In this document: piece after piece, positions 1-40,776 of the stretch
Layout of the letters: each line of letters starts with the position of its first letter
How positions within the stretch are numbered: position 1 is the first letter of the stretch
IMG/VR virus record: IMGVR_UViG_3300014613_000001
Coordinates: 64,001-128,000 of that record
DNA: 64,000 nt
DNA from: a virus
Reading direction: 5' to 3' (one strand)
Program-made: the position numbers and the translations under genes
The notes under the pieces: generated by a model
What the model saw: only the letters and a program-made list of their open reading frames with translations
Told to the model about the DNA's origin: nothing
Databases searched by the model: none

Positions 1-1422
1 CAAGCTGCGCAGGATGACAACGGCATCTACGTCGTGACCACGGTGGGCACCGGTGTCATCTTCCAGGTTCTGACCCGGGCCACCGACTTCGACGACGATG
101 CGGATGTGGTCTCCAACGTCACCTGCCGTGTCGAAGAGGGTGCCACCAACGCTCTCACCATGTGGTATCTCTCGACGGTCAACCCGATCGTCGTGGATAC
201 CACCAACCTGGTCTTCCTGAGCTCCCACGCTGCCGATCATATCGATGGAGCCCGGGACGCGATCGACGGTGACAACCTCGGCATCACCTGGGTTCCGGCC
301 ACCTACGCTCGTAACGCAGCTCCTGCTGAAGCAGCCAACGTCACTTCGTTGACCGCGCACCTTCGGGGTGTCGATGATCTGCTGACAACTCATGCGGCGA
401 CTCTCGCTGCTCGAGATCGGAAGGACAACGTCCGGTTGGCCACAGCCGCGGCCCTGGGCGCCTGTACCCCCACCGGCACCGGAGTCGGCAAGATCCTGAC
501 TCAAGATGCCGGAGCCGTTGAGGATATCGACGGCGTGGCGCTGGTGGTTGGCGACCGTATCTTGGTCAAAGATCAGGCGGCTCAGGATGACAACGGCATC
601 TACACGGTCACGGTCGTGGGTGATGCCACTCCCACTCAGCAGGTTCTGACCCGCGCAGTCGACGCCGACACGGATGCGAAGGTCACCGCGGGGATGTTCA
701 CCAGGGTCGAAGAGGGTACGGCCAACGCTGGTACCATCTGGTACCTCACCACGGTCAACCCGATCGTGTTGGATACGACCAACCTGGTTTTCTCCAACAT
801 CCCCAACCTGCACATGGCCACGCACCTTCCCGGTGGTGGCGATGCTCTGACCACGGCGGCCCCGGTCGATATCAGCGGAGCCAACGCCGAGGGTGCCGCG
901 GCCAGCTTCTCCCGGTCGAACCACGTCCATAAGCTGGCGCTCCTGAACTCCCACCTGGCTCACCAGATGATCGCGCCTTTCGGCGGCGTAGCGGCAGCGG
1001 CGGGCGCGATCAACGCGCGTCGGACCTTCGACTTCGATGATGGTCTCGGCGCCCCCGACGAGCAGATCTGCTGCGAAGGGATCATGCCAGAGCACTACAG
1101 CGGTGGGGACATCACCGTTGTGCTGACCTGGTATGGAACGGATGTGGCTCTCGGAGACGTCAAGTGGGATGTCTCCTGGGAGCGCATCGAGGCTGGGGTC
1201 CTGCTTCTCACTGGTGACAGCTTCGCCGGCGTGCAGACCTCGACTGTGACCCAGACGGCGATCAACGTGGCCCTGGAGACGCCGATCGTCTTCACGCAGG
1301 CTCAGGCTGACGGCATCGTCCCCGGCGACGCGTACCGGATTCTGATCATGCGTGATTCCAACGACGCCGGCGACACTTGCGTGGGCGATGTCGGTCTCCT
1401 TGCGGTCCACGTCTACCAGTAG
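1..1422 (+). CDS. Tail fibre/virion structural protein with repeated module (5' partial)
   Basis: The frame is open from base 1 (QAAQDDNGIY...). It has two copies of the module 'KDQ..QDDNGIY.V...VLTRA.D.D.DA.V...RVEEG..NA.T.WYL.TVNPIV.DTTNLVF' (about 1-216 and 574-792), typical of phage tail-fibre proteins. Confidence 0.6.
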   Translation, partial: QAAQDDNGIYVVTTVGTGVIFQVLTRATDFDDDADVVSNVTCRVEEGATNALTMWYLSTVNPIVVDTTNLVFLSSHAADHIDGARDAIDGDNLGITWVPATYARNAAPAEAANVTSLTAHLRGVDDLLTTHAATLAARDRKDNVRLATAAALGACTPTGTGVGKILTQDAGAVEDIDGVALVVGDRILVKDQAAQDDNGIYTVTVVGDATPTQQVLTRAVDADTDAKVTAGMFTRVEEGTANAGTIWYLTTVNPIVLDTTNLVFSNIPNLHMATHLPGGGDALTTAAPVDISGANAEGAAASFSRSNHVHKLALLNSHLAHQMIAPFGGVAAAAGAINARRTFDFDDGLGAPDEQICCEGIMPEHYSGGDITVVLTWYGTDVALGDVKWDVSWERIEAGVLLLTGDSFAGVQTSTVTQTAINVALETPIVFTQAQADGIVPGDAYRILIMRDSNDAGDTCVGDVGLLAVHVYQ

Positions 1423-3013: not shown

Positions 3014-3146
3014 GTCTGGGATCACTAAACCTCCCAGCTGGTGTTGTCGTCAGGATCGGCGTGTGGTCTGGGATCGCTAAACCTCCCAGCAGGTGTTGTC
3101 GCAGGATCTCAGAGTCTGAGATCAGTAAGCCTCTCAGCTGGCATTG
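3014..3146. repeat. Three tandem hairpin-containing repeats with covarying stem
   Basis: Units start at 3014, 3066 and 3114. Stems are CTGGGA/TCCCAG twice and CTGAGA/TCTCAG once, each with a 10-nt loop. Confidence 0.85.
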
Positions 3147-3479
3147 ATAGGAGGTCGATGGCTGTACGGCATCTTCTCCCCTTCTTATCGTGTCGACGGC
3201 GCAGATGAAAGGAGCAAAATTCTCGCCGCGAAAAGGGAGCTGATGCCGTACAGACATCTTCCTCGTTCAGATCACTTATACCACAGATTCTATGAATTTA
3301 GCGATCTCTGCAGCAGACATGAGGAGGGTGTGCCGATTTTTGATCGGGTCAGGCGTGACCAAGAGTCCTGCCTCGGTGCATAGGTCAGAGATCAACTTGT
3401 CGTCGAGGCCCTCGAGTTGGACCTTGAGCACTTGATCCAGTACCCCTATGCGCCGAACCCGCGGCGCGCTCTCGTTGGT

Positions 3480-4190
3480 TCACTTCGAACTCTTCGCGAC
3501 ATCGGGCCTGGCGAGTTTCTTGGCGATGGCCAGGATCTTCATGAACCCGGGAATCGGTGTCGTCTCGAAGAGGACGGCCCAGGCGCGTATCGCTGTCTCC
3601 TTGTGTTCCACGACGATGGCTTTGATGTCCTTGAGCTCGTCGTGGACGTCGAGGAGGAGACCAGCGACTTCAGTCATGAGATCGACAAGGCGGTCGATCT
3701 TCTCCTCGGCGCTGGAGATCTCGTCGCTCGAGGTCGGAGGGTCGCGGAACTGCATGCCGTCGGAGCGGTCTTCGGGCTCGAGATCGTGGCTGCTGAGAAT
3801 GTCCTCGAGACCCAGCTCTCTGGCAAGATCTTCGGTCTCGTCCCCATCCGTTTCCACTTCTGGCTCCGGATCTGGTTCTGGATCAGGCTCCGGATCGGGA
3901 TCGGGCTTGACCTTGTTTCGGTCGTTTTTCTTCGGGCGTGATCGCTTCTTGGTGGTCTCAGGAGCTTCGTCTGGGTTGACGGGAGCTCCGGCCGGCCGCC
4001 ATCCTGCGTCGTACTTCTCGAGGATGAGCTCGATCATCTTCTCGGGGCCGTCGACCTCGGCGGCTCGCATCACGGATACGTCGACCCCAGCCTTGGTGGT
4101 TCCTATCCAGGCGAGTCTTCTGGTACTCGAGGTGAGAAGCTGTTGTTTGTACACTTCACGCTCGACCTGATCATCAGTCTTTGTAGCCAT
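3480..4190 (-). CDS. Hypothetical acidic protein with (PD/PE)n linker
   Basis: 236-aa ORF with a PDPDPEPDPEPDPEPE tract, abutting its neighbours. Confidence 0.7.
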   Translation of the reverse strand: MATKTDDQVEREVYKQQLLTSSTRRLAWIGTTKAGVDVSVMRAAEVDGPEKMIELILEKYDAGWRPAGAPVNPDEAPETTKKRSRPKKNDRNKVKPDPDPEPDPEPDPEPEVETDGDETEDLARELGLEDILSSHDLEPEDRSDGMQFRDPPTSSDEISSAEEKIDRLVDLMTEVAGLLLDVHDELKDIKAIVVEHKETAIRAWAVLFETTPIPGFMKILAIAKKLARPDVAKSSK

Positions 4191-4584
4191 CTTCTCTTAC
4201 TGCCTTTCCTACGATGGAGTTGTTGTTGTAACAACATAGTACTTCTGAGTCATGCTTGTTGTGACACTGGCAGTCACAACCCGCAAGTAGTTGGTCTCTA
4301 ATTGTGTGCCTGCGCGTTTCTATAAACCAGAGTAGTCGTCTTCGCAGGTAGTCGAGTGGGTGCCAGACATCAGGCGTTTCGCCCCGGATGTCGCTCTGAA
4401 GAAGGTCTACGAGTTCGTTGTAATCCTGCCCCCTGTGCGCTCTGACGCCACGAAGGTTGAGAATCTCGACGAGCTCTGAGGAGTTCATCAGTAGTAGATC
4501 TTCGTCATAGATCGGAAGCGTACGGTTACGTATTTGCTCGTCCCAGTCGACCTTGTTCCAGCCCCAGCGTTTTCGGTTGCCCAT
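4174..4584 (-). CDS. Hypothetical protein (C-terminal CxCxC-H cluster)
   Basis: 136-aa ORF in the operon, containing GCDCQCHNKH. Confidence 0.7.
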   Translation of the reverse strand: MGNRKRWGWNKVDWDEQIRNRTLPIYDEDLLLMNSSELVEILNLRGVRAHRGQDYNELVDLLQSDIRGETPDVWHPLDYLRRRLLWFIETRRHTIRDQLLAGCDCQCHNKHDSEVLCCYNNNSIVGKAVREDGYKD

Positions 4585-4591
4585 GCTGTCC

Positions 4592-5011
4592 TCAGAATGC
4601 GCATTCCATGATCCGGACTTCGATTCGTGGATTATCGGGGTCGCACAGCTTGGTCACTAGCTTCTCCATGATATGGCTGTCGTCGACGCCGATTGCACCC
4701 ATGAATGAGTCGATGGTCAGCTTTTCTCTGTTTTGTGCATCAACCTTCTTGAACCTCCTTTTCGTCTTCGTGGTCTCGTTGGGGTTCCAACTCTTGTTCT
4801 CTATGGCGGTGAAGAACACTGCGAGCTCAATTCGGTAGGCTACGTCTTGACGGAAGTGTAGGCCAGATTGCCTCAACGCGGCGGTGCTGACAATGTCACT
4901 CACCTTTTTTTGAAACTGGCTCGCTTCCTTCGACAGCTTCCGCACTCCGTTACTGAGCGTAACATAGATCTTGTTGTCGGAGGGTGCCATGGGTAGGTCA
5001 ACTGTGAACAT
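4592..5011 (-). CDS. rusA: RusA-like Holliday junction resolvase
   Basis: N-terminal LPMAPSDN, core D..N..K...D......VDD..I and C-terminal PRIEVRI match the RusA family pattern. Confidence 0.8.
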   Translation of the reverse strand: MFTVDLPMAPSDNKIYVTLSNGVRKLSKEASQFQKKVSDIVSTAALRQSGLHFRQDVAYRIELAVFFTAIENKSWNPNETTKTKRRFKKVDAQNREKLTIDSFMGAIGVDDSHIMEKLVTKLCDPDNPRIEVRIMECAF

Positions 5012-5014
5012 TCT

Positions 5015-5653
5015 TTATCTTCCCCGCTCTCTTCTATCGCGGAATTCAGGGGGGTCGCTGTCTCGGAATTCGGGGGCTCCTCGACCCTTTCTCATGTTCT
5101 GGACGTTATGGGTTCGCCGAACACCGTCGATTTCTCGTGTACGGATTTCGATGTATCTCGAGACCACCTTTCGTTGATTGGTCAGCCCTTCGAGGGCTTG
5201 TTGAAGAGATCGTGCCGTCCCCTTCTGTACGAGGAACTCTTGGTGCGCTCGGACGTAGCGTGGATCTCCTTGGGCCTTGTCTGCTCTACCAGCAACGGGC
5301 CCTCCCGCTTCGTCTTTCAGTCGTGACATCAGGTGCTTGGATTCGGCTTCCATTGCCTGAGCTTGGGTCTCATGAAGAGCGAGCTGCTCCCCGATGAAGT
5401 CTTCCCACACAGAGAATTCACCCTGTATGTCGCCAAGCTCCGCGTCAGACATCTGGCTAACGGGTCCGCGGAGTCGTGGCCTTTCCATATTTGGTCGCCT
5501 CCTTGGGGTGATGCCGAGCTCCTGAAGATTGCGGACAACTTCGCTGCGGACAGAGCGGTAGAGGTCTCGGGCTCCTTCATAGTTTGTCAGGAGGGCGTCG
5601 AATCGGGCCAAGTTGACGCTGCTTCCGCGCCGTTCCTCGTCTTCTTCAGACAT
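5015..5653 (-). CDS. Coiled-coil protein, possibly a UvsY-like recombination mediator
   Basis: Long heptad-rich helices with 'DPRY', located in the RecA/resolvase module. Function is inferred only from context. Confidence 0.35.
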   Translation of the reverse strand: MSEEDEERRGSSVNLARFDALLTNYEGARDLYRSVRSEVVRNLQELGITPRRRPNMERPRLRGPVSQMSDAELGDIQGEFSVWEDFIGEQLALHETQAQAMEAESKHLMSRLKDEAGGPVAGRADKAQGDPRYVRAHQEFLVQKGTARSLQQALEGLTNQRKVVSRYIEIRTREIDGVRRTHNVQNMRKGRGAPEFRDSDPPEFRDRRERGR

Positions 5654-5654
5654 T

Positions 5655-6497
5655 TTACACCTTCAGTGCTCCGCGGCTATGCTGCCGCGGTTTGAGCGGA
5701 GGATCACATTCCTCAAAGAATTTACACCATCGGCATGACTTTCCAGGGCTACGCATCGGGATCTTGTACGTCTTCGCCACCTCGAGGATTTTTCTCAACC
5801 GTTGTTCGATCGGGGACCATGTGGCCTGACGGAATGGGACGAGGAAGTTCCTCATGAGCGAGGTGTCTTTGTTGTAGTACAGGATGCACGAGAGTGGAAC
5901 ATCAAGCGCCCACATGTAAGCCAGGGTCTGCTTGACGTAGGAGGAGTTGGGAGTTCGTCGGAGGGAGGAAAAGGCCGACGCCGACGCCGACTTGTAATCG
6001 AAGATCGCGCGAAGGTCGATTACAACCTTTTCTCCGTTGAACTGAAGACGGAGTAGCCGTTCGACATATCCGTCTGTACTTCCGCCAAGATGCAGATCTT
6101 GCGCGTGCTCGCTGTCCTTGGACACTGCGACCTCGTGGTCGTAGAAGAAGCCTTTCCGCTCGGCTAGTGTGTGTTGGTAGTACTGTAGCTGTTCATGGAT
6201 GACCGTCCCTGTGTCAAAGATCAACAGCTTCTGCGCGTTGAGCTTCTCCGTTTCGGGAGCCCCAACCAGTTCGTAGAAGAGAAATCGGTCGCAGGGGTTG
6301 GTCAGCGACGACGGGTGAAACACACAGCTCGTTCGCTGAACACCCCAATCGAGCACCGTTGTGTGGCGCATCGGGTTGTTTCCCAAGTGCCCGACGTGTT
6401 CCTCGATTTCGCTGCACACGTTCCAGCTCAGGAGGATGTCCAGTACACCTGGGTTTGCTTCCAGATCAGCCCGAGTTCGTAGCTTGATTTTTTTCAT
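5655..6497 (-). CDS. Cas4-like PD-(D/E)XK exonuclease with 4-Cys cluster
   Basis: HPSSL..PCDR, GTVIH, GSTDG, DYKS, QTLAY and C-terminal CRWC.....C. Start assigned to MKKIKL (6497), which has a GAGGGAG SD. Confidence 0.8.
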   Translation of the reverse strand: MKKIKLRTRADLEANPGVLDILLSWNVCSEIEEHVGHLGNNPMRHTTVLDWGVQRTSCVFHPSSLTNPCDRFLFYELVGAPETEKLNAQKLLIFDTGTVIHEQLQYYQHTLAERKGFFYDHEVAVSKDSEHAQDLHLGGSTDGYVERLLRLQFNGEKVVIDLRAIFDYKSASASAFSSLRRTPNSSYVKQTLAYMWALDVPLSCILYYNKDTSLMRNFLVPFRQATWSPIEQRLRKILEVAKTYKIPMRSPGKSCRWCKFFEECDPPLKPRQHSRGALKV

Positions 6498-22023: not shown

Positions 22024-22056
22024 GCTAGATTCGATCTCGTGGGATGTCCTTATACC
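22024..22056. promoter_or_regulatory. Bipartite motif GCTAGAT-N18-CTTATACC, copy 1 (candidate phage promoter)
   Basis: GCTAGAT 22024-22030 and CTTATACC 22049-22056, at a divergent junction. Confidence 0.7.
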
Positions 22057-22151
22057 TTTCCTGTGTCGGCCTTTGCCCAGCTCCTCCAGGGTGATAGACT
22101 TGATGCAGAAACCCCCGATGCTTGTTCGTTCGGGGTCCAACGAGGAGTCAC

Positions 22152-23354
22152 ATGCTACTTTCAGCCGGTTCCGTGATTGATCCGTATGACGATGGGTTCC
22201 GATCCCTCAAGAACTTCTTCGGCTCTGGGCGCGAGATGCCGGATTTCATCAAGACCGCTTCCATCCTTGATCAAGATCAGCTTTCCAAGCTGCCGGATCA
22301 TGCGTTCGCTGTGGTCATGGTCGGGCCTGATCGGATGCTGCGGAAGTACGCCTGTGTCGACAAGGCGCACACCGCCGTGAACGTCATGTACTTCCTGAAG
22401 TCAGAAGCTGATCTTCCGCCGTCGGCCCGTGTGAAGGTGGCGGAGAACCTCATCCGGGCTTGTCGGCACTTCAGTGTTCAGCCGCCGGCGCAGTTGAGCA
22501 AGATCGCTTCCTTGAACAAGAAGCGCCTGATCAAGACGGATGGCCCAGATATCATGGTGCCGGTTCAGGGCCGAGAGAAAGAATCAGATGTCCCGGTGAA
22601 CAGGAACGCGTACCCCACAGAAACCGGGCGTACAAAGCTGGCGTACGTCATGACGTCGCCGTACGTGGATCTCGATGAACCGTACCGCCCCGAGCGTAAC
22701 ATCGAAAAGACGGCGTCGAGCTCGGTCTCCGCACTTCCTGACGGGCGTTTTCCTCTCGATACTTTTTCTCAGGTGAAAGAGGCTGTTGAGTTCTTTCGGG
22801 AGACGGCGCGTACGATACACCCAAGAGTCCGTCGAGAGATGTGTGTGAAGATCGCATCGCGGGCCGAGGATCTGGGGGTGCAGATCCCGGATGTGATCCG
22901 GAAATACGGATCAACAGAGTGGGCCGCGAAAGGAGAGCGTGAAGCGACGTTGGTGTCCAGGCGTCAGGTGTGGGCTTCTTCAGGAAATGAAGAGGGTCCG
23001 GGAATGCTCGATCTGCTGATGGAGAAGCAGGCCAGCACGGATCCGGATGTCTTCGCCAATGTGTTGGCCGAGATCGACGCTCAGACTGGCATCGACCATC
23101 TGTGGGATCGTCATCTCGCTGATCCGTGGTTGTCGACTTTCGGCATTCGAAAGACAGCGGCCTGGAAATGGTCGGACAACGGGACGGAGGTCACCGAGCA
23201 GCAGTTGAAACGACTGGTCGGATCACGGATGGAGAAGGTCGCGGAAACCTTTGGGAGTCATCTTGCTGACGGGCTCGCGAGAGAAACCACTGTGGTTTTT
23301 GATTCGCTTCCTTTGGACACCAAGCGTATCTTGGCCAGGATGGCACAAGAGTAG
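22152..23354 (+). CDS. Virion head-associated protein with K-x-A motifs and two LPD..F modules (DUF6582-like)
   Basis: SKLPDHAFA...RKYA..D..H and [11 protein letters not shown] modules; repeated KTAS/KIAS/KTAA; GAGGAG SD. Confidence 0.55.
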
Positions 23355-23378
23355 GACGGGCAAGGATGAGGTATCGCC

Positions 23379-23712
23379 GTTTTCCCCACACGCGTGGGGA
23401 TGGACCGGTGGGAGTGGCTCGGAACCCCATGGGACCCAAGTTTTCCCCACACGCGTGGGGATGGACCGTCGGCGACGAGGGTGAGACCCGCCAGGGTCGA
23501 GTTTTCCCCACACGCGTGGGGATGGACCGCCGGGGCTGCTACCAGAGCTTCATTGTGCGAGGTTTTCCCCACACGCGTGGGGATGGACCGAAGATGGCCG
23601 AGCTCGAGAAGCTCTTCGGATTGTTTTCCCCACACGCGTGGGGATGGACCGTCGGACACCCAAGCCGACGAAGGTCGGTGCCCGTTTTCCCCACACGCGT
23701 GGGGCTGGATCT
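23379..23712 (+). CRISPR. Type I-E-like CRISPR mini-array: 6 repeats (last degenerate) and 5 spacers of 32 bp
   Basis: 29-bp repeat GTTTTCCCCACACGCGTGGGGATGGACCG at 23379, 23440, 23501, 23562 and 23623; degenerate copy ...GGGGCTGGATCT at 23684. 61-bp period with a CCCCAC/GTGGGG hairpin. Confidence 0.97.
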
Positions 23713-23718
23713 AAGAGG

Positions 23719-24603
23719 ATGACACGCCAAGGTGAAGAGCGTCTTTGGCAGCAACTTCAGGACGCCGAAGAGGAGAAGCCGATCGAGGAGGTCGAACCAC
23801 CGGCTGATCCGAAACCCGATAACGTCGAGAACGACAAGTCGGGAGATATGACGGTTTCGAATTTCTTGGCACACCACGATACCCATCCACTCGTGCTCGA
23901 CGCAGCTTGCCTGAAGGCGTTTCAGACGGACTGGTTGTGGTGGGAGCCTGAGATTATACACTCTGAGCTGCGGCGTGTGTTTGGGCAGTCAACGATCAGC
24001 ACCCTGAACTGGCAGCAGATCCAGGCGTGCAAGACCTGCCATGTTGTCCCGACCCCGTGGAAGGAGTGGGAGGTGTTCAACACTGTGATCATGGCGTTGA
24101 ACAACAACATCCCTGACTTTCACACCATGCAGAAGCCGAGCATCGCGCAGGTCATGGTGGGCCTGGATATCATGAGTCGGATCGACAGCCGACAGATGTT
24201 TTCGGAGGAAGTAGAGAAGTTCATTGCCGCCGTATTCTTGGAGGATGGCGTTTACTTCATGCCGCCTCCGGCAGATTTCGCGCAGGAGTGGGCGTCGAGG
24301 CCCGAGTACCGGTGCCGAAGGTGTGGACGCATTGATCGCGATGACATGAACGACATGTGCGATAGCTGCGGAGCGCCGGACAGTGAGTTGGAGCGGCAGT
24401 TGGCTTTCGACCCCGCCCCCGTCATGGCCAGGTACAATGAGTGTGTTCGTCTCGGAAACGATCGCGAGGACATGCTCGAGGAGACGATCATCGACGTTCA
24501 AACAGCGAAGCTCCTCCTCGCTCGAGAGTACATGCTGTTTCGGCGTCAGCAGTTGGAAGATCAGCTCAAGGTGGTGAACGATGCCAAGCCCATACGTGAT
24601 TGA
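23719..24603 (+). CDS. Hypothetical virion-region protein with C-terminal Zn finger
   Basis: Start at 23719 (AAGAGG SD) just after the array; CRRC...CDSC. Confidence 0.7.
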   Translation: MTRQGEERLWQQLQDAEEEKPIEEVEPPADPKPDNVENDKSGDMTVSNFLAHHDTHPLVLDAACLKAFQTDWLWWEPEIIHSELRRVFGQSTISTLNWQQIQACKTCHVVPTPWKEWEVFNTVIMALNNNIPDFHTMQKPSIAQVMVGLDIMSRIDSRQMFSEEVEKFIAAVFLEDGVYFMPPPADFAQEWASRPEYRCRRCGRIDRDDMNDMCDSCGAPDSELERQLAFDPAPVMARYNECVRLGNDREDMLEETIIDVQTAKLLLAREYMLFRRQQLEDQLKVVNDAKPIRD

Positions 24604-25493: not shown

Positions 25494-27359
25494 ATGTTTG
25501 GATATGGAGAACCGGTTGGTGCACAGCAGTCCCAGACCTCGGGCCGTATTCGGGGCTCGGGGAGGATCGAGGGGGTCAAGTACCCCTCGCCATTTTTTGA
25601 TCTGGCGCACACGTACCTGCCGAGCTCGGTCAAGCAGCTGTTTCAGTGGTGTCGGTATTTCTATCTGACAAACCCGCTGATCGCGACCGTCGTCAACAAA
25701 TTGGCCGAGTACCCGATCACCGATCTCGTGATCGACACTAATAATAAAGGGCTCAAGGACAAGTGGCAGGGGTTTTTTGATGACGACATCTTTTTGCAGC
25801 CGAGTCTGATCGACATCGGTCTGTTCTACACATGCTACGGGAACGCGTTGATATCCCTGAGCTTCCCGTTCGTCAAGTGGCTCAAGTGCGAGAAGTGCAA
25901 ACATGAGGTTCAGGCGAAGGAGGCGACGTACCAGTTTCGGGGGTGTAAGTTCCGCCTCACTTGCAAGAAGTGTGATCATCAAGGTGTAGCCGAGGTTCGT
26001 GATCAGTCGCTCTCCACAACATTCGGATCGCGTTTGATCCTCTGGAACCCAGAGGACATTGACATTCAGTACAACGATCTCACCGGAGAGACCGTGTACT
26101 ACTACACGCTCCCTGCGCATCTGAAGAGCGCCATTCGGGTCGGACGACGAGAAGTAGTCGACCGTTCTCCGCAGGTGTACATCGATGCGGTTCGTCTCAA
26201 TAAGTCGGTCGTCCTCGATGCTGACAACGTCTACCATCTCCGAAGGCCTTCGATCTTCACAGGTCGTTTGAACCGAGGATGGGGCACACCGCTTCTCATG
26301 CCGGTGCTGAAGGACACCTTCTATCTTCAGCTCATGAAGAAGGCGCAAGAGGCTGTGCTGCTCGAGCGCATGCTTCCTCTGAACGTCATATCCCCCGCCT
26401 CCGCAGCTCCAGGAGTGAATCCTTACGAGCTCACTAACCTGGATGATTGGCGAACTCACGTCATGGGGGAGATCATGAAGTGGCGGCGTGATCCTCTCTA
26501 CATCCCGGTCATGCCTCTGCCGCTCAATCACCAGGTCATCGGAGGGGATGGTCGAGCGTTGTTGCTCAACAACGAGATGCGTCAGATCTCGGATGTCATT
26601 GTGGCCGGGATCGGGTGCCCACCAGAGCTTGTCTACGGCGGGCTCTCTTGGTCGGGCTCCAACGTCAGTCTCCGGATCCTCGAGAACCAGTTTCTTAGGT
26701 ACCTGTCCGGCATGCTGCGCTTTATCAAGGTCTTCCTCATTCGACGAACCGCGGCGCACCTCGGTTGGCCGGCGGTGGATGCGCGGTTCAAGCCGTTCAA
26801 GATGGCTGACGATATCCAGCGCAAAGCGTTCATGCTGCAGGCCAATCAAGCGAAGTTGGTCAGCGACACGACTATGCGTGAAGAGATGGATCTCAGCCCG
26901 GATGGGGAAGATTCGCTCTTGAAGAGTGAGGTCAAGCGCCGTCTCGAGAGTATGGAAGAGCAGCAAATGGCCGAGGCCCAGATCGCCGGCAAAGCCAGTG
27001 TGCTCTCTGCGAAGTACGAGGCTCGTGCTCAGATGGCTCTGGCCGAAGAGCAGCAACAGATGAGTCAGGGAAGTTACGGTTCGGCTCAGGGCGAACCAGG
27101 CGCCGGCACAGCCGAGGCTCCGGTGTCTCCGGCACAGCCGGATGCAGCTCAGGGCGGATTCGCGCAGATGCTGCAGCGCCTACAACAGGTTTCTCCAGAC
27201 AGCCAGCAGGCGATCATCCAGCGCATCGCACAACAGAACCCACAGCTCGCCGAGACACTCTCCAAGCAGCTTCAGCCGGCCGCACCTTCCACAGACTCCT
27301 CTGCGGGTAAGCCCCTGCCAGAACAGCTTCCACCGCGGCGTGCAGCCAGCCCCGTGTGA
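25494..27359 (+). CDS. Portal protein (with Zn-finger insertion and Gln-rich tail)
   Basis: YLTNPLIATVVNKLAEYPITDL N-terminal portal-like motif, RGWGTP, IVAGIGCP.ELVYG and VDARFKPF.M.DD; size and context fit. Confidence 0.7.
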   Translation: MFGYGEPVGAQQSQTSGRIRGSGRIEGVKYPSPFFDLAHTYLPSSVKQLFQWCRYFYLTNPLIATVVNKLAEYPITDLVIDTNNKGLKDKWQGFFDDDIFLQPSLIDIGLFYTCYGNALISLSFPFVKWLKCEKCKHEVQAKEATYQFRGCKFRLTCKKCDHQGVAEVRDQSLSTTFGSRLILWNPEDIDIQYNDLTGETVYYYTLPAHLKSAIRVGRREVVDRSPQVYIDAVRLNKSVVLDADNVYHLRRPSIFTGRLNRGWGTPLLMPVLKDTFYLQLMKKAQEAVLLERMLPLNVISPASAAPGVNPYELTNLDDWRTHVMGEIMKWRRDPLYIPVMPLPLNHQVIGGDGRALLLNNEMRQISDVIVAGIGCPPELVYGGLSWSGSNVSLRILENQFLRYLSGMLRFIKVFLIRRTAAHLGWPAVDARFKPFKMADDIQRKAFMLQANQAKLVSDTTMREEMDLSPDGEDSLLKSEVKRRLESMEEQQMAEAQIAGKASVLSAKYEARAQMALAEEQQQMSQGSYGSAQGEPGAGTAEAPVSPAQPDAAQGGFAQMLQRLQQVSPDSQQAIIQRIAQQNPQLAETLSKQLQPAAPSTDSSAGKPLPEQLPPRRAASPV

Positions 27360-27656: not shown

Positions 27657-27689
27657 GCTAGATAGGCCCGGTTCCATTGCTCTTATACC
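27657..27689. promoter_or_regulatory. Bipartite motif GCTAGAT-N18-CTTATACC, copy 2
   Basis: GCTAGAT 27657-27663 and CTTATACC 27682-27689, upstream of the RNAP gene (+) and the micro-ORFs (-). Confidence 0.7.
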
Positions 27690-27845
27690 TGTTGGCTTGT
27701 TCCATTTGCGTGGGGCTGGTAGAGTGAGATCAGGTTAGACAAGGAGCCGACATGGCCAGATTTGACCCCGAAGGCGGACGTAGCTCTGCCAATGACGGGG
27801 ACGAGGGCGCGAGGTCGGAGAGCCGGAAGCACATGGGGGCACGTC

Positions 27846-30800
27846 ATGTCACGGCTTGACCCGAAAGACAGCTTTGCGGCACTGAAGGAAGGGGTGAAGA
27901 CGTCGATCAGTAGCACCTTCCCACAGGTTGGCGAAAAGAACACTCTTGATCTCGAGGACATCGAGATCACCGATGACATAAACGAGGCTGACTACACCGG
28001 GCAGAAGGACGCCAAGATCAACGGGCGAACTTGGGGCGTTCCTGTACACGCCACGATGGTGCTCAAGGACAATAAGACCGGGAAGGTTCTTGATCGGAGG
28101 CGACAGAAGATCGCCACGCTCCCAAAGGTGACCAATCGTTACTCCTACGTCGTCCAAGGATCAGAGTATCAGATCGACGGACAGTGGCGCCTTCGTCCAG
28201 GTGTCTACACGAAGGTCAAAGAGAACGGGGAGCTTGACTCGTTCTTCAACATCAAAGGGCGCCCGCTTCACGTAGGATTTGATCCTAAAGAGCGGAAGTT
28301 CAACATTCAGCATGGGGGCGCGAAGCCCCCACTCTATCCCGTCATGAAAGCTCTTGGTATCAGTGACGATACGCTGGAGAAGAAGTGGGGGAAGGATATC
28401 CTGGCTGCGAACCGGACAGATGCTCGAGGTCGGCCGCTCAAGGTCGACAAGGTGGCCATCGACTTTGCTCGTCGCATTGACCCTCGTGCAGAGGTAGAGA
28501 CCTTTGAAGACGCCTCTAGGGTCATCCAGACCAACTTTGAGCAGTCGGAGCTCCACCCCGAATCGACAAAGCGCACACTTGGAAAAAAGATCGATCGCGT
28601 CACTCCCGAAGCAGTGCTTCTCTCGTCGGGAAGACTCCTGGGGGTGGCTCGAGGAACTGAGAAGCCTGATGTTCGGGATTCGCTGGTGTTCAAGGACTTC
28701 CACGGTGTGGAGGATTTCGTCGCGGAGAGGATCACTGGACACGCTCCGACGATCGCAAGGCGGGTTGGGAATAACCTGGATAAGACCGACAAGATCAAGG
28801 ACATCGTCGGGCCCGACATGTACGATCGTCCGATCAAAGAATTCTTTGGGAAGGTGTCCCTGGCCAGTACACCTCCTCAGACAAATCCACTTCGAATGAT
28901 CTCTGGTCAGATGAAGACCACCATTGCTGGCGAGGGTGGTGTATCTGATGCGAATCGGATCACTGATGACGCAAAGCTCGTTGACCCATCGCACTTCGGA
29001 GTCCTCGATCCTCTGCACACACCTGAGTCTGTGAGCACGGGCGTTACCCTCCAGCTCACGCTAGGAGCTCGAAAGAAGGGAACTCAGATCGTAGTACCCC
29101 TGTACGATGTCAAGTCTGGGAAGACGAAGTTGGTCGATACCGCAGAGGTTCACGACTCGATCGTCGCGCTCCCGGATGAGGTACAGAAAGTAGGGGGTGT
29201 GTACGTTCCGAAGAAGGGTAACCGGGTGTTGGCGAGCATCGCCGGAAACGACATGCGGCCCACGGCCATGAAAGATGTGAAGTACATCGTTCCCCACTCG
29301 AGTCAAATGTTCTCGCTGGCGACCAACATGGTGCCCTTCATCAACAGTGATTCTCCAAACCGCGCCACGATGGCTGGGCGCCATATGGAGCAGACGATAC
29401 CCGTCGTCGACGGCGAGGTCCCGCTTGTTCAGTCCACGATCGGGGGGAAATCGTTCGACGAAATTATCGGTCGTTTTGCTTCCAGCAACGCGCCGGTGGG
29501 CGGAAAGGTAACGAAGATCACTGAAGATGCCGTCATGATGAAGTCGGATGACGGCAAGTCACATAAAATCCCGATCTACAACCACTACCCGCTCAATGAC
29601 AAGAAGGGATTTATGCACAGCACACCGACGGTCCAGGTCGGTGAACAGATCAAGAAGGGTCAGCTGCTCGCAGATACGAACTTCACGAAAGGCGGAGTGT
29701 ACGCCCCCGGGAAAAATCTGACCGTGGCGTACATGCCGTGGAAGGGTCTGAACTTCGAAGACGGTGTTATCGTGAGCGAAGAGGCCGCGGCGAAGATGAC
29801 CTCGATGCACATGCACAAGAAGGGGCTCTCGACGCGGGATGCGACTCTTGATGGGAAGAAGAAGTACCAAGCCCACTACCCGAATCAGCTGACGAAGGAA
29901 CGGGCCGAGAAGCTCGACGATGATGGCATCGTCCGTATCGGGCAGAAGGTCAAGCCGGGGGATGTGCTGATCGCAGCTCTTGGCGAGCAGGTGCTGACGA
30001 CTGAGCAGCAGAAGATGCGGCTCCTCCATCGCAGTCTTGTACAACCGAAGAAGGACAAGGCTGTGACCTGGCAGGAGGACTTCGAGGGCGAGGTCGTGGG
30101 GGTGAACCGACGTGGGAAGCACGTCGATGTCCATGTAAAGACTATCGAGCCCATGGAGATCGGAGACAAGCTCGTAGGCCGCCACGGAAACAAGGCGATC
30201 GTCACTGGTATCCTCGCCAAGGGTGAGATGCCTCAGACTCAGGATGGCCGACCTGTCGAGATCCTCATGAATCCGATTGGTACTCCGGGCCGCATGAACG
30301 TCGGACAGGTACTCGAGACAGCGGCTGGGAAGCTGGCGGAACACCGGGGTTCTCCTTACAAGGTCGAGAACTTCTCCGAGGAGGACAACCTCGAATCCGT
30401 TCGTAGTCAGCTTGCGGCAGCTGGCCTCGACGATAAGGAGGATCTGATCGACCCCGGCACGGGGAAGAAGATCCCCGGGGTACAAGTCGGGAAACAGTAC
30501 ATCCTGAAGATGGAGCACCAGGTCGGGAAGAAAATGGCGTCTCGTGAGCGTGATGCTTATGACCAGAACATGGTCCCTCGAGGTGGTGGGAAGCACGGAG
30601 CCCAAGCTCTTGGTGGGCTCGGCGTGTACGCCATGCTGGCTCACGGCGCGCGTGAGAACCTGCGTGAGATGCAGGTGAGCAAGACCGACAAGGATCAGAC
30701 GGACGAGCTGTGGACTGCCATCCAGACCGGAGAGCTCCTCCCGCCACCGAAGACGACCTTCGCCTACAATAAATTCAACGGGTACCTCAATGGAATGGGG

Positions 30801-33800
30801 GTGAACGTACACAAGGACGGCAACAGTCTGAACCTGATGCCGATGACGGACGCCGACGTGCTCAAGCTCTCGAACGGGGAGTTGAAGGACGCTGGGCGTG
30901 CCCTGAAGGCCAAGACGCTGAAGCCGGAAAAGGGTGGTCTCTTCGACGAGAAGATCACAGGTGGGATGGACGGGAAGAAGTGGGGCCACATCAGGCTCGC
31001 TGTACCTGTTCCGAACCCACTGTTTGAAAAGGCCGTCATGAGTCTGACAGGCCTCCGAGGACCGCAGTTCAATCGCATCATCGACGGCGACGCTGGTGTC
31101 ACGGAAGATGGGAAGATTGTTGACGAGGTTGGCGTGAAGGGGGCGGTCTACGGTCCCCCGGCTGTTGGCCGTCTCCTTGATAAAGTTGATGTCACGGCAA
31201 GTCTTGCCGAGGAAGAGAGTCGTCTGCCCAAGCTGAAGGGCCAACTCTTGAACGAGTCGGCCAAGAAGGTCAAGTACCTTCGAGCGTTGAAGAAGCTGGA
31301 TATGACGCCGACCGCGGCGTACATGACGCAGAACGTCCCTGTGTTGCCGCCTTCGATGCGTCCGATCTCTGTGATGGAGGACGGAAGCCTTCAGACGGAC
31401 GACCTCAACGAGCTCTACAAGGGCCTAGCGATCGTGAACGCGAAGCAGAGAGAGTTTCCAGCCGGGACTCCTGAGTCGCTCAAGGCTCCTATCGCTGCGA
31501 GTGTGTACGATCATATGAAGGCGTTGACGGGTAATGGCGGGACGCTCAACGCGAAGCACCCTGGCCTTCTGGAGATAATTGCCGGGAAGAACGGGCCCAA
31601 GACGGGCTTCGTCCAGAAGACGTTGATCAAGCGAAAGCAGGATCTCTCGGCGCGCTCGACCATTGTTCCTGATCCGACTCTCGGGCTTGACGAGGCGGCC
31701 ATTCCGCGGAAGGCCGCAAAGGAGATCTACAAGCCATTCATCGTCAAGGAGCTTCGAGCTATGGCCGGTACCTCACCGAACGAAGCCCGGAGGATGATTG
31801 ACGAGGATGACCCTCTTGCTCGAAGAGCGCTCGAACGTGTGGTAGAGAAGCGTCCGATCATTTTGAAGAGGGATCCGGTTTTGCACCGATACGGCGTCCA
31901 GGCGTTTAAGCCCAAACTTGTGGACGGTAAGGCGATCAAAATTCACCCTCTGGTGTGCTCGGGCTACAACGCGGACTTCGATGGGGACACCATGAGCGCC
32001 TTCGTTCCGATCTCTGATAAAGCGGTCGCCGAGGCGCACAAGATGTTTCCGTCGAGCAACCTCTTCAGCCCCGCCACACACGGCGTCATGTACGCGCCAT
32101 CCCACGAGCAGCAGGTGGGGTTGTTCATGGCGACCCAGGTCGGGAAGAGTACGGGCAAGAAGTTCAAGGATCTGAAGGAGGCTGAGAAGGCGTTCAATGC
32201 TGATGAGGTCGGACTCACGGATGTGGTGAGTGTTGCCGGTGCGACGACGACGCTTGGGCGATCACGAATAGATGCCCAGTTACCGACGGAGATGAGAGGC
32301 GGCAAGATCCTGACGGATCTGCAGTACAACCTTACGAAGAAAGAGCAGGGGCAGCTATTCAACGAGATGGCGCGTGGCAATCCTAAGAAGTACCCAGATC
32401 GTGTCAATAAGCTCAAGGATATCGGGAATGACACCGCCTCTACCCAGGGGTTCAGTCTGGGGCTCGAGGACTTCAAAGTTCATAAGGAGATTCGTGATCC
32501 TATCCTTCTACATGCGGCCGCTAGATCAGCGAAGCTGGACTCGAACAAGCCTGCCGATGTCTCGAGAATAGTGGATATCTACGCTGACGCTATGGAGAAG
32601 ATCGAGACCGGTGTCATGGCCAAAGCGAAGCGCGGCACGTCTCAGCTTGACCGTCTTCAGAACGCAGCGGGTATCAAGGGCGGGGGTTATCGCCAGCTCA
32701 CTGCGGCCCCTGTGCTCTTTGTAGATGGAAAGGGAGACGTTGTCCCGAATCCCGTGACTCGCTCCTATGCTGAGGGGCTGTCCACAACGGCTTATTGGAG
32801 TGCAACGAGCGGCGGTCGTAAGGGCATCGTTCAGAAGGTGCAAAGCGTCTCGGAGCCAGGCTATCTCACCAAGATGATGACGAATTCTGTCATCGATCAG
32901 CTCGTCGACAAAGATGACTGCGGGACTGATCGCGGTATATCATTGTCCGTCGACGAGCCAGACGTGGTCGGTCGATATACAACAGCGGGGCTCAACCTCG
33001 GACGGGGAAAGGTGATCCCCGCGGGGACGATGCTCACACCCGACGTCCTGACAAAGATCAGGAACAGTAAGGCTTCAGCGAAGGTGGTCGTGCGCTCTCC
33101 GATGAGATGCACCCATACTCATGGCGTGTGCCAAAAGTGCATGGGGCTAAACGAAGACGGCCAGCTGAACGACTTTGGCACGAATGTCGGGGTTGCAGCT
33201 GCACAGGCTCTCGGGGAACGAGGCACACAATTAGCAATGAAGGCATTTCATTCTGGGGGTGTTTACGAGGGAAAGGGGACGAAGTCCTTGACCGGGGAGG
33301 GTCTTGATCAGGCGACGAGCATTCTGTACTTGAGACAGAAGGTGAAGGGGTCCGCGGTGCTCGCGGACATCGGGGGTAAGATTCGCAGGATCAAGAAGGA
33401 TCCTGCTGGCGGTGCTCGAGTAATGATCGGAGAGAACGAGGTCTATGTTCCCTCCGATCGGAAGATGCTCAAGAATATCCGTGTGGGCGAGACTGTGAAG
33501 CGCGGAGATCAGCTGACGTCCGGACCTGTGAACCCACACGAGCTTCTACCACTAACGAACGTGAACAAGGTGCAGGGACATCTAGCAGGGGAACTGCACA
33601 GCATCTACGGTAGTCAGGGTATCCGGCGTCGTAACTCTGAGGTGCTGGTACGCGCGATCTCAAGTGTGACGAAGGTGGAAGACTCCGGTGGCCACCCAGA
33701 TCTGCTTCGGGGGGATTTTGCCAACACGGCGATGATCCAGGACTGGAATAAGAAGCACAAGGACGCGGCTCCGGTTCGTCATGTGCCGGTCCTTCGGGGT

Positions 33801-33992
33801 GTCAAACAGGTGCCACTCGATGTTCAAGAGGATTGGATGGCGCGGCTGAATCACCAGAACCTGAAGTCCACGGTGATCGAAGCGGCACAGCAGGGGTGGT
33901 CCTCTGATCTTCATGGTACAAACCCCGTACCCTCGCTTGTGTATGGTGTAGAATTCGGGAAGGGCACGAAGGAAAAGCCCTGGAGGTACTGA
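27846..33992 (+). CDS. rpoBC: Single-chain beta-beta' fusion DNA-dependent RNA polymerase (probable virion RNAP)
   Basis: Beta motifs TPES, GDKLVGRHGNK and ILKMEH...ASR, then in the same frame beta' motifs KPEKGGLF, WGHIRL, RDPVLHR, catalytic YNADFDGD (about 31965-31988), SGGRKG..K and DCGT...RSP..C......CQKC. ORF track starts at 27762; likely ATG at 27846. Confidence 0.95.
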   Translation: MSRLDPKDSFAALKEGVKTSISSTFPQVGEKNTLDLEDIEITDDINEADYTGQKDAKINGRTWGVPVHATMVLKDNKTGKVLDRRRQKIATLPKVTNRYSYVVQGSEYQIDGQWRLRPGVYTKVKENGELDSFFNIKGRPLHVGFDPKERKFNIQHGGAKPPLYPVMKALGISDDTLEKKWGKDILAANRTDARGRPLKVDKVAIDFARRIDPRAEVETFEDASRVIQTNFEQSELHPESTKRTLGKKIDRVTPEAVLLSSGRLLGVARGTEKPDVRDSLVFKDFHGVEDFVAERITGHAPTIARRVGNNLDKTDKIKDIVGPDMYDRPIKEFFGKVSLASTPPQTNPLRMISGQMKTTIAGEGGVSDANRITDDAKLVDPSHFGVLDPLHTPESVSTGVTLQLTLGARKKGTQIVVPLYDVKSGKTKLVDTAEVHDSIVALPDEVQKVGGVYVPKKGNRVLASIAGNDMRPTAMKDVKYIVPHSSQMFSLATNMVPFINSDSPNRATMAGRHMEQTIPVVDGEVPLVQSTIGGKSFDEIIGRFASSNAPVGGKVTKITEDAVMMKSDDGKSHKIPIYNHYPLNDKKGFMHSTPTVQVGEQIKKGQLLADTNFTKGGVYAPGKNLTVAYMPWKGLNFEDGVIVSEEAAAKMTSMHMHKKGLSTRDATLDGKKKYQAHYPNQLTKERAEKLDDDGIVRIGQKVKPGDVLIAALGEQVLTTEQQKMRLLHRSLVQPKKDKAVTWQEDFEGEVVGVNRRGKHVDVHVKTIEPMEIGDKLVGRHGNKAIVTGILAKGEMPQTQDGRPVEILMNPIGTPGRMNVGQVLETAAGKLAEHRGSPYKVENFSEEDNLESVRSQLAAAGLDDKEDLIDPGTGKKIPGVQVGKQYILKMEHQVGKKMASRERDAYDQNMVPRGGGKHGAQALGGLGVYAMLAHGARENLREMQVSKTDKDQTDELWTAIQTGELLPPPKTTFAYNKFNGYLNGMGVNVHKDGNSLNLMPMTDADVLKLSNGELKDAGRALKAKTLKPEKGGLFDEKITGGMDGKKWGHIRLAVPVPNPLFEKAVMSLTGLRGPQFNRIIDGDAGVTEDGKIVDEVGVKGAVYGPPAVGRLLDKVDVTASLAEEESRLPKLKGQLLNESAKKVKYLRALKKLDMTPTAAYMTQNVPVLPPSMRPISVMEDGSLQTDDLNELYKGLAIVNAKQREFPAGTPESLKAPIAASVYDHMKALTGNGGTLNAKHPGLLEIIAGKNGPKTGFVQKTLIKRKQDLSARSTIVPDPTLGLDEAAIPRKAAKEIYKPFIVKELRAMAGTSPNEARRMIDEDDPLARRALERVVEKRPIILKRDPVLHRYGVQAFKPKLVDGKAIKIHPLVCSGYNADFDGDTMSAFVPISDKAVAEAHKMFPSSNLFSPATHGVMYAPSHEQQVGLFMATQVGKSTGKKFKDLKEAEKAFNADEVGLTDVVSVAGATTTLGRSRIDAQLPTEMRGGKILTDLQYNLTKKEQGQLFNEMARGNPKKYPDRVNKLKDIGNDTASTQGFSLGLEDFKVHKEIRDPILLHAAARSAKLDSNKPADVSRIVDIYADAMEKIETGVMAKAKRGTSQLDRLQNAAGIKGGGYRQLTAAPVLFVDGKGDVVPNPVTRSYAEGLSTTAYWSATSGGRKGIVQKVQSVSEPGYLTKMMTNSVIDQLVDKDDCGTDRGISLSVDEPDVVGRYTTAGLNLGRGKVIPAGTMLTPDVLTKIRNSKASAKVVVRSPMRCTHTHGVCQKCMGLNEDGQLNDFGTNVGVAAAQALGERGTQLAMKAFHSGGVYEGKGTKSLTGEGLDQATSILYLRQKVKGSAVLADIGGKIRRIKKDPAGGARVMIGENEVYVPSDRKMLKNIRVGETVKRGDQLTSGPVNPHELLPLTNVNKVQGHLAGELHSIYGSQGIRRRNSEVLVRAISSVTKVEDSGGHPDLLRGDFANTAMIQDWNKKHKDAAPVRHVPVLRGVKQVPLDVQEDWMARLNHQNLKSTVIEAAQQGWSSDLHGTNPVPSLVYGVEFGKGTKEKPWRY

Positions 33993-40743: not shown

Positions 40744-40776
40744 GCTAGATAGTGACATCTGTCTGCCTCTTATACC
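40744..40776. promoter_or_regulatory. Bipartite motif GCTAGAT-N18-CTTATACC, copy 3
   Basis: GCTAGAT 40744-40750 and CTTATACC 40769-40776, 22 bp before the terminase ATG. Confidence 0.7.

Follow-up and report, generated by a model that had tools for sequence, protein, structure and literature searches.

The window analysed here is a stretch of 64,000 nucleotides corresponding to bases 64001-128000 of a 177,773-bp virus record in IMG/VR (IMGVR_UViG_3300014613_000001). This phage genome has direct terminal repeats (123 bp by our own count) and a CheckV completeness of 100%, and the genes found in it include those for a large terminase, a major head protein and a probable portal. A type I-E CRISPR mini-array was located between two genes of the window, and the features of the locus are listed below; positions here and in the text are those of the window unless they are given as genome positions.

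22024..22056, plus strand: motif GCTAGAT-N18-CTTATACC, a candidate promoter of the phage, preceding the array-holding operon
22122..23354, plus strand: gene upstream of the array (410 aa), part of the conserved core and of no known family
23355..23378, plus strand: gap of 24 bp from the upstream stop codon to repeat 1, with no leader
23379..23712, plus strand: type I-E CRISPR mini-array, consisting of five exact repeats, one degenerate repeat and five spacers
23379..23651, plus strand: repeats 1-5 (29 nt, identical) with spacers 1-4
23652..23683, plus strand: spacer 5
23684..23712, plus strand: terminal repeat 6, whose last 8 nt are CTGGATCT instead of ATGGACCG; hairpin intact
23719..24603, plus strand: gene downstream of the array, encoding a Zn-ribbon protein of 294 aa and likewise part of the conserved core
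25494..27359, plus strand: probable portal protein, fourth gene of the array-holding block

When the array was recounted, all coordinates and counts given in the preliminary description of this DNA proved to be correct. Exact 29-nt copies of the repeat GTTTTCCCCACACGCGTGGGGATGGACCG occupy positions 23379-23407, 23440-23468, 23501-23529, 23562-23590 and 23623-23651, and the sixth repeat (23684-23712) differs from them by 3 mismatches, all inside its last 8 nt. The repeat period is exactly 61, and the six repeats enclose five spacers of 32 nt each (23408-23439, 23469-23500, 23530-23561, 23591-23622 and 23652-23683), which are unique and mutually unrelated. The array was also reported by Tandem Repeats Finder, and chance cannot account for five perfect copies of a 29-mer at constant spacing. 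Searching the whole 178-kb genome revealed no further copies of the repeat beyond these six, even at 8 mismatches; the Rfam scan returned no match to a CRISPR-DR family at E values up to 1, and no DNA match to the array region was found among the INPHARED phages. The repeat is predicted to fold, at -14.1 kcal/mol (z = -2.9), into a hairpin in which a loop of 4 nt caps a core stem of 7 bp (CCCCACA/GUGGGGA), and the 8 nt that remain on the 3' side of the hairpin, AUGGACCG, are the predicted 5' handle, so that the handle proposed earlier follows directly from the repeat. The Cas6e proteins of Thermus (Cse3) and E. coli cut after the stem and thereby generate an 8-nt handle. Since the degenerate handle part of repeat 6 precedes no spacer, each of the five spacers still has an undamaged handle on its 5' side and an undamaged hairpin on its 3' side. 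The array thus contains just the parts required for function.

The degenerate repeat marks the downstream end of the array, and the repeat has its crRNA sense on the same strand as the neighbouring genes. The array fills a same-strand intergenic gap, beginning 24 bp after the stop codon that ends at 23354 and ending 6 bp before the ATG at 23719. The 24 bp before repeat 1 contain no AT-rich leader with a promoter, and no sigma-70-like promoter was found on the plus strand between 21500 and 28000; the array thus has no conventional leader, as had been described, and it is co-oriented with its neighbours. The phage flanks of the array showed no similarity to the flanks of host arrays, and the possibility that a host leader or trailer had been captured with it was rejected. 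An open frame of 118 codons on the plus strand (23366-23722) spans the whole array. This frame is a by-product of GC-rich, stop-poor sequence and is no sign of a gene. For the same reason, no weight can be given to the earlier observation that the spacers read as coding fragments, as an open frame is expected from their GC-richness.

We also considered whether the array could be an assembly chimera, and this was rejected on the basis of Logan contigs, in which unitigs join the array to both flanking genes at equal depth. In two groundwater runs (X1 and X2), single unitigs extend from the upstream gene through repeat 1 and spacer 1 into repeat 2, while at the other end repeat 5, spacer 5, repeat 6 and the downstream gene are likewise joined within single unitigs. 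All array unitigs, including short ones covering the inner spacers, have the depth of the phage flanks (33-36x in X1 and 84-88x in X2), with the proviso that the phage record may itself derive from these runs, which are therefore not independent of it. A third run (X3), from another study and year, contains the junction of spacer 5 with the downstream gene at low depth and letter-identical. In all, the array was seen in runs from three studies, dating from 2018-2019. Runs X2 and X3 additionally contain low-depth contigs with the same repeat and other spacers (e.g., an AT-rich 32-mer), and other arrays of this repeat family, possibly those of the host, thus co-occur with the phage in the groundwater samples.

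The preliminary description placed the array inside a virion operon, and this is only partly supported: a probable portal gene lies in the same block, and the two flanking genes have no known family or fold. The upstream gene (22122-23354) had no Pfam or PHROG match; Foldseek searches with its AF2 model (pLDDT 84) matched uncharacterised phage proteins only (BFVD) and found no fold match in the PDB. For the downstream gene (23719-24603), Pfam and PHROGs were uninformative, and its AF2 model (pLDDT 88) gave only a local match to a rubredoxin-like zinc ribbon. This gene has 44 homologues of about equal length, many of them on contigs of 100-190 kb and the closest with 68% identity, and their length supports the ATG at 23719 as the start. 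The product of the fourth gene (25494-27359), which had no Pfam or PHROG match, was identified as a probable portal by an ESM Atlas structure search (TM 0.61-0.69 to portal clusters) and by a feature search (0.93-0.94 to portal families). Just downstream of the array-containing block lies an ORF of 2076 aa (27762-33992) in which RNA polymerase beta (Rpb2 domains 3 and 6) is fused to beta' (Rpb1 domains 1, 2 and 5).

Upstream of the block, the motif GCTAGAT-N18-CTTATACC is found at 22024-22056, and it recurs exactly at 27657-27689 and 40744-40776, each time ahead of a rightward gene block. Allowing up to 1 mismatch, there are five copies in the 178-kb genome, the additional two lying on the minus strand at genome positions 131082 and 172875. 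The motif is a candidate promoter for the phage's own polymerase, and its positions are consistent with one transcript that would extend from about 22060 to about 27400 and include the array.

In order to relate the repeat to host arrays, as had been recommended in the preliminary description, one genome per GTDB species was scanned, and at least 120 stretches from many phyla matched. Among the matches listed, the exact 29-mer was present in three genomes, Ardenticatenaceae FR_9, Chloroflexota AS08sgBPME_257 and Longilinea sp. R89_285, all of which are Chloroflexota; one-mismatch variants among the matches listed were commonest in Anaerolineae and occurred in other phyla too. The FR_9 array lies ~1.3 kb downstream of cas6e, the last confirmed gene of a cas3-cse1-cse2-cas7-cas5-cas6e operon, and its genes from cas3 to cas6e all pass the NCBIfam type I-E models. 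In AS08sgBPME_257, a complete operon (cas3...cas6e-cas1e-cas2e) is followed by the array (L131:7957-9229), which begins ~50 nt beyond cas2e. Because the identical 29-mer adjoins full I-E cas operons, the phage repeat can be assigned to type I-E, and the phage carries a genuine type I-E array, as first thought. The I-E arrays of the candidate Chloroflexota hosts apparently have no long leader, and that of AS08sgBPME_257 has almost none, which makes a leaderless phage array less odd. In Longilinea R89_285, a 5-repeat I-E array (L134:6876-7150) directly follows repeats of a different type, GTCGCCTCCCTCGCGGAGGCGTGGATTGAAAC. The Cas6e HMM had no match in this 2.8-Mb MAG.

The repeat is not exclusive to one host, since its family is spread over several phyla and the Thermus repeats are only 2 nt different. 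The type I-E repeat of Thermus thermophilus is among the closest known counterparts, and the Thermus genomes that we fetched carry GTAGTCCCCACACGCGTGGGGATGGACCG, which agrees with the phage repeat in its stem and in the terminal ATGGACCG on the 3' side; the exact identity of the phage repeat, in contrast, is with Chloroflexota arrays and not with Thermus. Arrays of this repeat family yielded 1474 spacers, none of which matched the phage, and none of the five phage spacers was present in the host arrays fetched. A Deinococcus spacer that matched the loci of phage relatives at 21 of 22 nt at best was judged to be a chance match. The mean GC content of the phage spacers is 0.64, that of the spacers in the FR_9 and AS08sgBPME_257 arrays is 0.63 and that of the phage genome is 0.57, which, with n = 5, is a weak hint that the spacers may have been acquired in or from an array of the host type. 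The repeat makes members of the Chloroflexota, probably of the class Anaerolineae, the candidate hosts.

We examined whether the phage itself encodes the proteins that such an array requires. HMMs for Cas6e, Cas7e and the Cas3 core, the three models used, had no match in the complete phage genome, and tblastn with six FR_9 proteins (Cas3, Cse1, Cse2, Cas7, Cas5 and Cas6e) gave no match below E = 0.09. The claim that cas3, cascade and cas6 genes are absent, made earlier for the window, therefore extends to the complete genome; a complete cognate cas operon elsewhere in the genome, which was to be searched for, was not found, and the array stays an orphan. The term "cas-less" holds for type I-E genes but not for cas genes in general, as an ORF at genome positions 3329-5305 (L221:3329-5305) encodes a Cas12m (type V-M) effector, with E = 4e-78 to PADLOC Cas12u1/Cas12f and E = 4e-40 to solved Cas12m structures. 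The hairpin CTGGGATCACTAAACCTCCCAG, the handle of Cas12m, recurs between genes at least 32 times in the genome, with three copies at window positions 3016-3116, and has nothing in common with the I-E repeat. By these searches, the array is orphan with respect to its own type I-E only.

The preliminary description also expected the spacers to target phage or host genes, but no protospacer was found for any spacer in the searches that were run. Pattern scans used the first 29 nt of a spacer and left every sixth base free, as Cascade allows, a design that diverged or unsampled targets could escape. These scans found no protospacer for any of the five spacers in IMG/VR and none for spacers 1 and 4 in JGI metagenome contigs. 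None of the spacers matched the five candidate Chloroflexota hosts at up to 3 mismatches, and spacer 1 had no match in 301 genomes sampled from the class of FR_9. Self-targeting was not indicated either, the best match within the phage having 10 mismatches. We further compared the PAM-proximal seeds with ~80 kb of sequence surrounding the cas loci in three candidate hosts, whose loci may differ from that of the true host. Seed matches there were at chance level (best run, 11 nt), and they did not lie at cas promoters.

When the array was compared by BLAST with the full records of 40 relatives of the phage, partial matches were almost only to spacer 4. The best of these (G317:C1:87722-87742; L215) comprises 21 contiguous nt, positions 2-22 of the spacer, with 22 of 32 positions identical overall and ATG at the PAM position, and it falls within a gene of 827 aa in a relative of 202 kb; the N-terminus of this gene is homologous to a gene of our phage (genome 30471-31001). 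This site was rejected as a functional target, as position 1 and the last 10 nt are mismatched and the match falls on the common coding motif AELEK. Spacer 4 encodes this common helical peptide motif in GC-rich codons, which explains the many weaker matches in relatives. A shared N-terminal tag was also considered as the target of this spacer and was dropped. Since published mini-arrays mostly target relatives of their carrier and no such target was found here among the 40 relatives, the array departs from the usual pattern of orphan mini-arrays.

To trace the origin of the array, a profile of the homologues of the downstream gene was used, which identified at least 138 IMG/VR loci, and 80 of the 138 were fetched. 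The family consists of phages with genomes of ~130-210 kb, and in most of the 80 loci the upstream and downstream genes are syntenic and co-oriented. The slot between these two core genes is hypervariable: the genes nearly abut in some relatives, where the slot is empty, and lie up to 2.7 kb apart in others, and in at least 23 relatives (among loci L135-L214) the slot holds a variable gene of 240-826 aa. IPT/TIG Ig-like repeats were detected in one of five examples of this slot gene that were scanned, and its nearest homologue in our phage begins at genome position 63293 (window 1-1422). The I-E repeat was absent from all 80 loci, even with 7 mismatches allowed, and no other array was present in any of them within a distance of 5 kb. 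The array is therefore a lineage-specific, recent gain in a slot that tolerates variable cargo. A same-repeat array, with 5 repeats and 4 spacers, was found at 5494-5768 of an unrelated 38.7-kb virus (IMGVR_UViG_3300009136_000020); its repeats degenerate toward the 3' end, and its spacers had no match to our phage. As this virus is unrelated and yet carries the same repeat, viruses have acquired this repeat at least twice.

From the existence of the array and its match to host I-E repeats, we infer its transcription, processing, loading, targets and host. The reading that we favour, and hold to be somewhat better than an even bet, is that the array is co-transcribed with the surrounding genes, processed by host Cas6e and loaded into host Cascade, and is aimed at competing elements. 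The plus strand of the array would be transcribed within an operon running from near 22060 to the probable portal gene, and host Cas6e would cleave after each repeat hairpin to release five 61-nt crRNAs, each consisting of a spacer of 32 nt between the 5' handle AUGGACCG (8 nt) and a 3' hairpin of 21 nt. These crRNAs would join host Cascade and steer host Cas3 onto DNA that carries the five protospacers, the likeliest targets being competing phages or mobile elements of the same Chloroflexota (class Anaerolineae) host. Processing of the array by Cas6e would necessarily also cut the operon mRNA at six places, a side effect that the preliminary description had pointed out.

The main rival to this reading is that the array acts as an RNA decoy or RNA anti-CRISPR, in which crRNAs strongly expressed from a phage promoter would either, irrespective of their sequence, swamp Cas6e and Cascade and so dilute host crRNAs directed at this phage (Racr-like) or reprogramme Cascade to repress host cas or defence promoters (Cracr-like), and we give it a modest chance of being correct. 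Racrs, including two against I-E systems, have been documented (PMC10651486), as have viral Cracr arrays, 20 of 30 of which are I-E (bioRxiv 10.1101/2024.10.29.618823); the repeat agrees letter by letter with those of the candidate hosts, the searches revealed no conventional target of the spacers, and high expression of the array would automatically compete for Cas proteins. However, Racrs are solitary repeat units that usually have their own promoter, while six repeats are clustered with spacers here, and Cracrs combine spacers of 21-24 nt with degenerate pseudo-repeats and a match to a cas promoter, whereas the present spacers have the canonical 32 nt, the repeats are perfect and the best seed at the three cas loci that were inspected (11 nt) lies off the promoter. 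The single occurrence of the array in one lineage also fits accidental capture, and a fragment of a host I-E array may have entered the permissive slot recently by illegitimate recombination and be functionless as yet. The slot does accept variable cargo in relatives, no targets were found, and the GC content of the spacers fits that of candidate-host spacers and not that of the phage. Nevertheless, the five working repeats are perfect and degeneracy is confined to the dispensable part of the last one, the insertion is precise and co-oriented and leaves both neighbouring genes undisturbed, the array recurs in runs from all three studies, and none of its five spacers occurs in the host arrays fetched, so that we regard an inert passenger as rather unlikely.

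The position of the array within an operon, where only 24 bp separate it from the preceding gene and 6 bp from the next, would also suit an element for mRNA processing, with the repeats serving as Cas6e sites that split the operon transcript or as a 3' hairpin that stabilises the upstream mRNA, in parallel to the intergenic Cas12m handles, of which the same phage has at least 32. One repeat would be enough for cleavage, though, and five unique spacers of canonical length are left unexplained; at least 80 relatives, moreover, have the same two genes and lack such an element, and this explanation is highly improbable. Similarly, we consider it very unlikely that the spacers are directed at the host chromosome, its prophages or its defence islands in order to shut down or remodel the host. 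Host-targeting arrays have been reported for huge phages (PMC7162821), and the spacer GC content of 0.64 is near that of the candidate-host cas regions (0.65-0.69), but neither the five candidate hosts nor, for spacer 1, the 301 genomes from the class of FR_9 contained a match. Processing of the message can also be combined with the reading that we favour, so that the phage would possess two CRISPR-derived RNA layers, its own Cas12m with dispersed handles and a borrowed I-E array, and host Cas6e would both make crRNAs and cut the polycistronic mRNA. This combination seems doubtful to us; if true, a Cas6e-bound hairpin would be left on the upstream message and a new 5' end would be created 14 nt before the next start codon, coupling CRISPR hijacking to the control of phage gene expression.

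Returning to the use of host Cas6e and Cascade by the array, orphan mini-arrays in phages are a known strategy, and this array, for which the searches found no target, leaves the existing picture of phage mini-arrays unchanged. What the locus does provide is the first concrete host lead (Chloroflexota, probably Anaerolineae, with a type I-E system) for a large family of uncultivated phages with at least 138 IMG/VR loci. It is also a clean case of a phage that has taken only the RNA part of a host immune system, and one that can be compared with 80 relatives lacking the array. With Cas12m and an I-E array in one genome, the phage should further be a good model for the combination of its own and borrowed CRISPR components.

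Large and huge phages have been described that carry compact arrays, with a median of six repeats, which share repeats with the host and lack cas genes, and use of the host machinery against competitors has been proposed for them (PMC7162821). Such behaviour has been demonstrated for mini-arrays of archaeal viruses, which serve in interviral conflict (PMC6858448; reviewed in PMC11656645). The present array resembles those described by Al-Shayeb et al. 2020 in that it belongs to a large environmental phage, has six repeats, lacks genes for adaptation and cognate interference, and has a repeat identical to that of a candidate host (PMC7162821). It differs from them in the size of its genome, which at 178 kb is under the 200-kb cut-off for huge phages, in its location between two core genes of a gene block and in its candidate hosts, the Chloroflexota; their cases also include targets in phages and hosts, and none was found for this array (PMC7162821). 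Like the mini-arrays of Medvedeva et al. 2019, it is a viral orphan array for which the use of host Cas proteins is presumed, its repeats being identical to those of candidate hosts (PMC6858448; PMC11656645). Those mini-arrays contain 1-2 spacers and mostly target close relatives of the carrier (PMC6858448; PMC11656645), whereas this one has 5 spacers, none of which matched the full records of the 40 relatives or, in the pattern scans, any IMG/VR contig. In contrast to Racrs and Cracrs, repeats and spacers alike have the canonical form in this array, and no match to a cas promoter was found; what it would share with Racrs (PMC10651486) and Cracrs (bioRxiv 10.1101/2024.10.29.618823), among which I-E examples exist, is the use of phage-borne CRISPR repeats without cas genes to engage the Cas6 and Cascade of the host.
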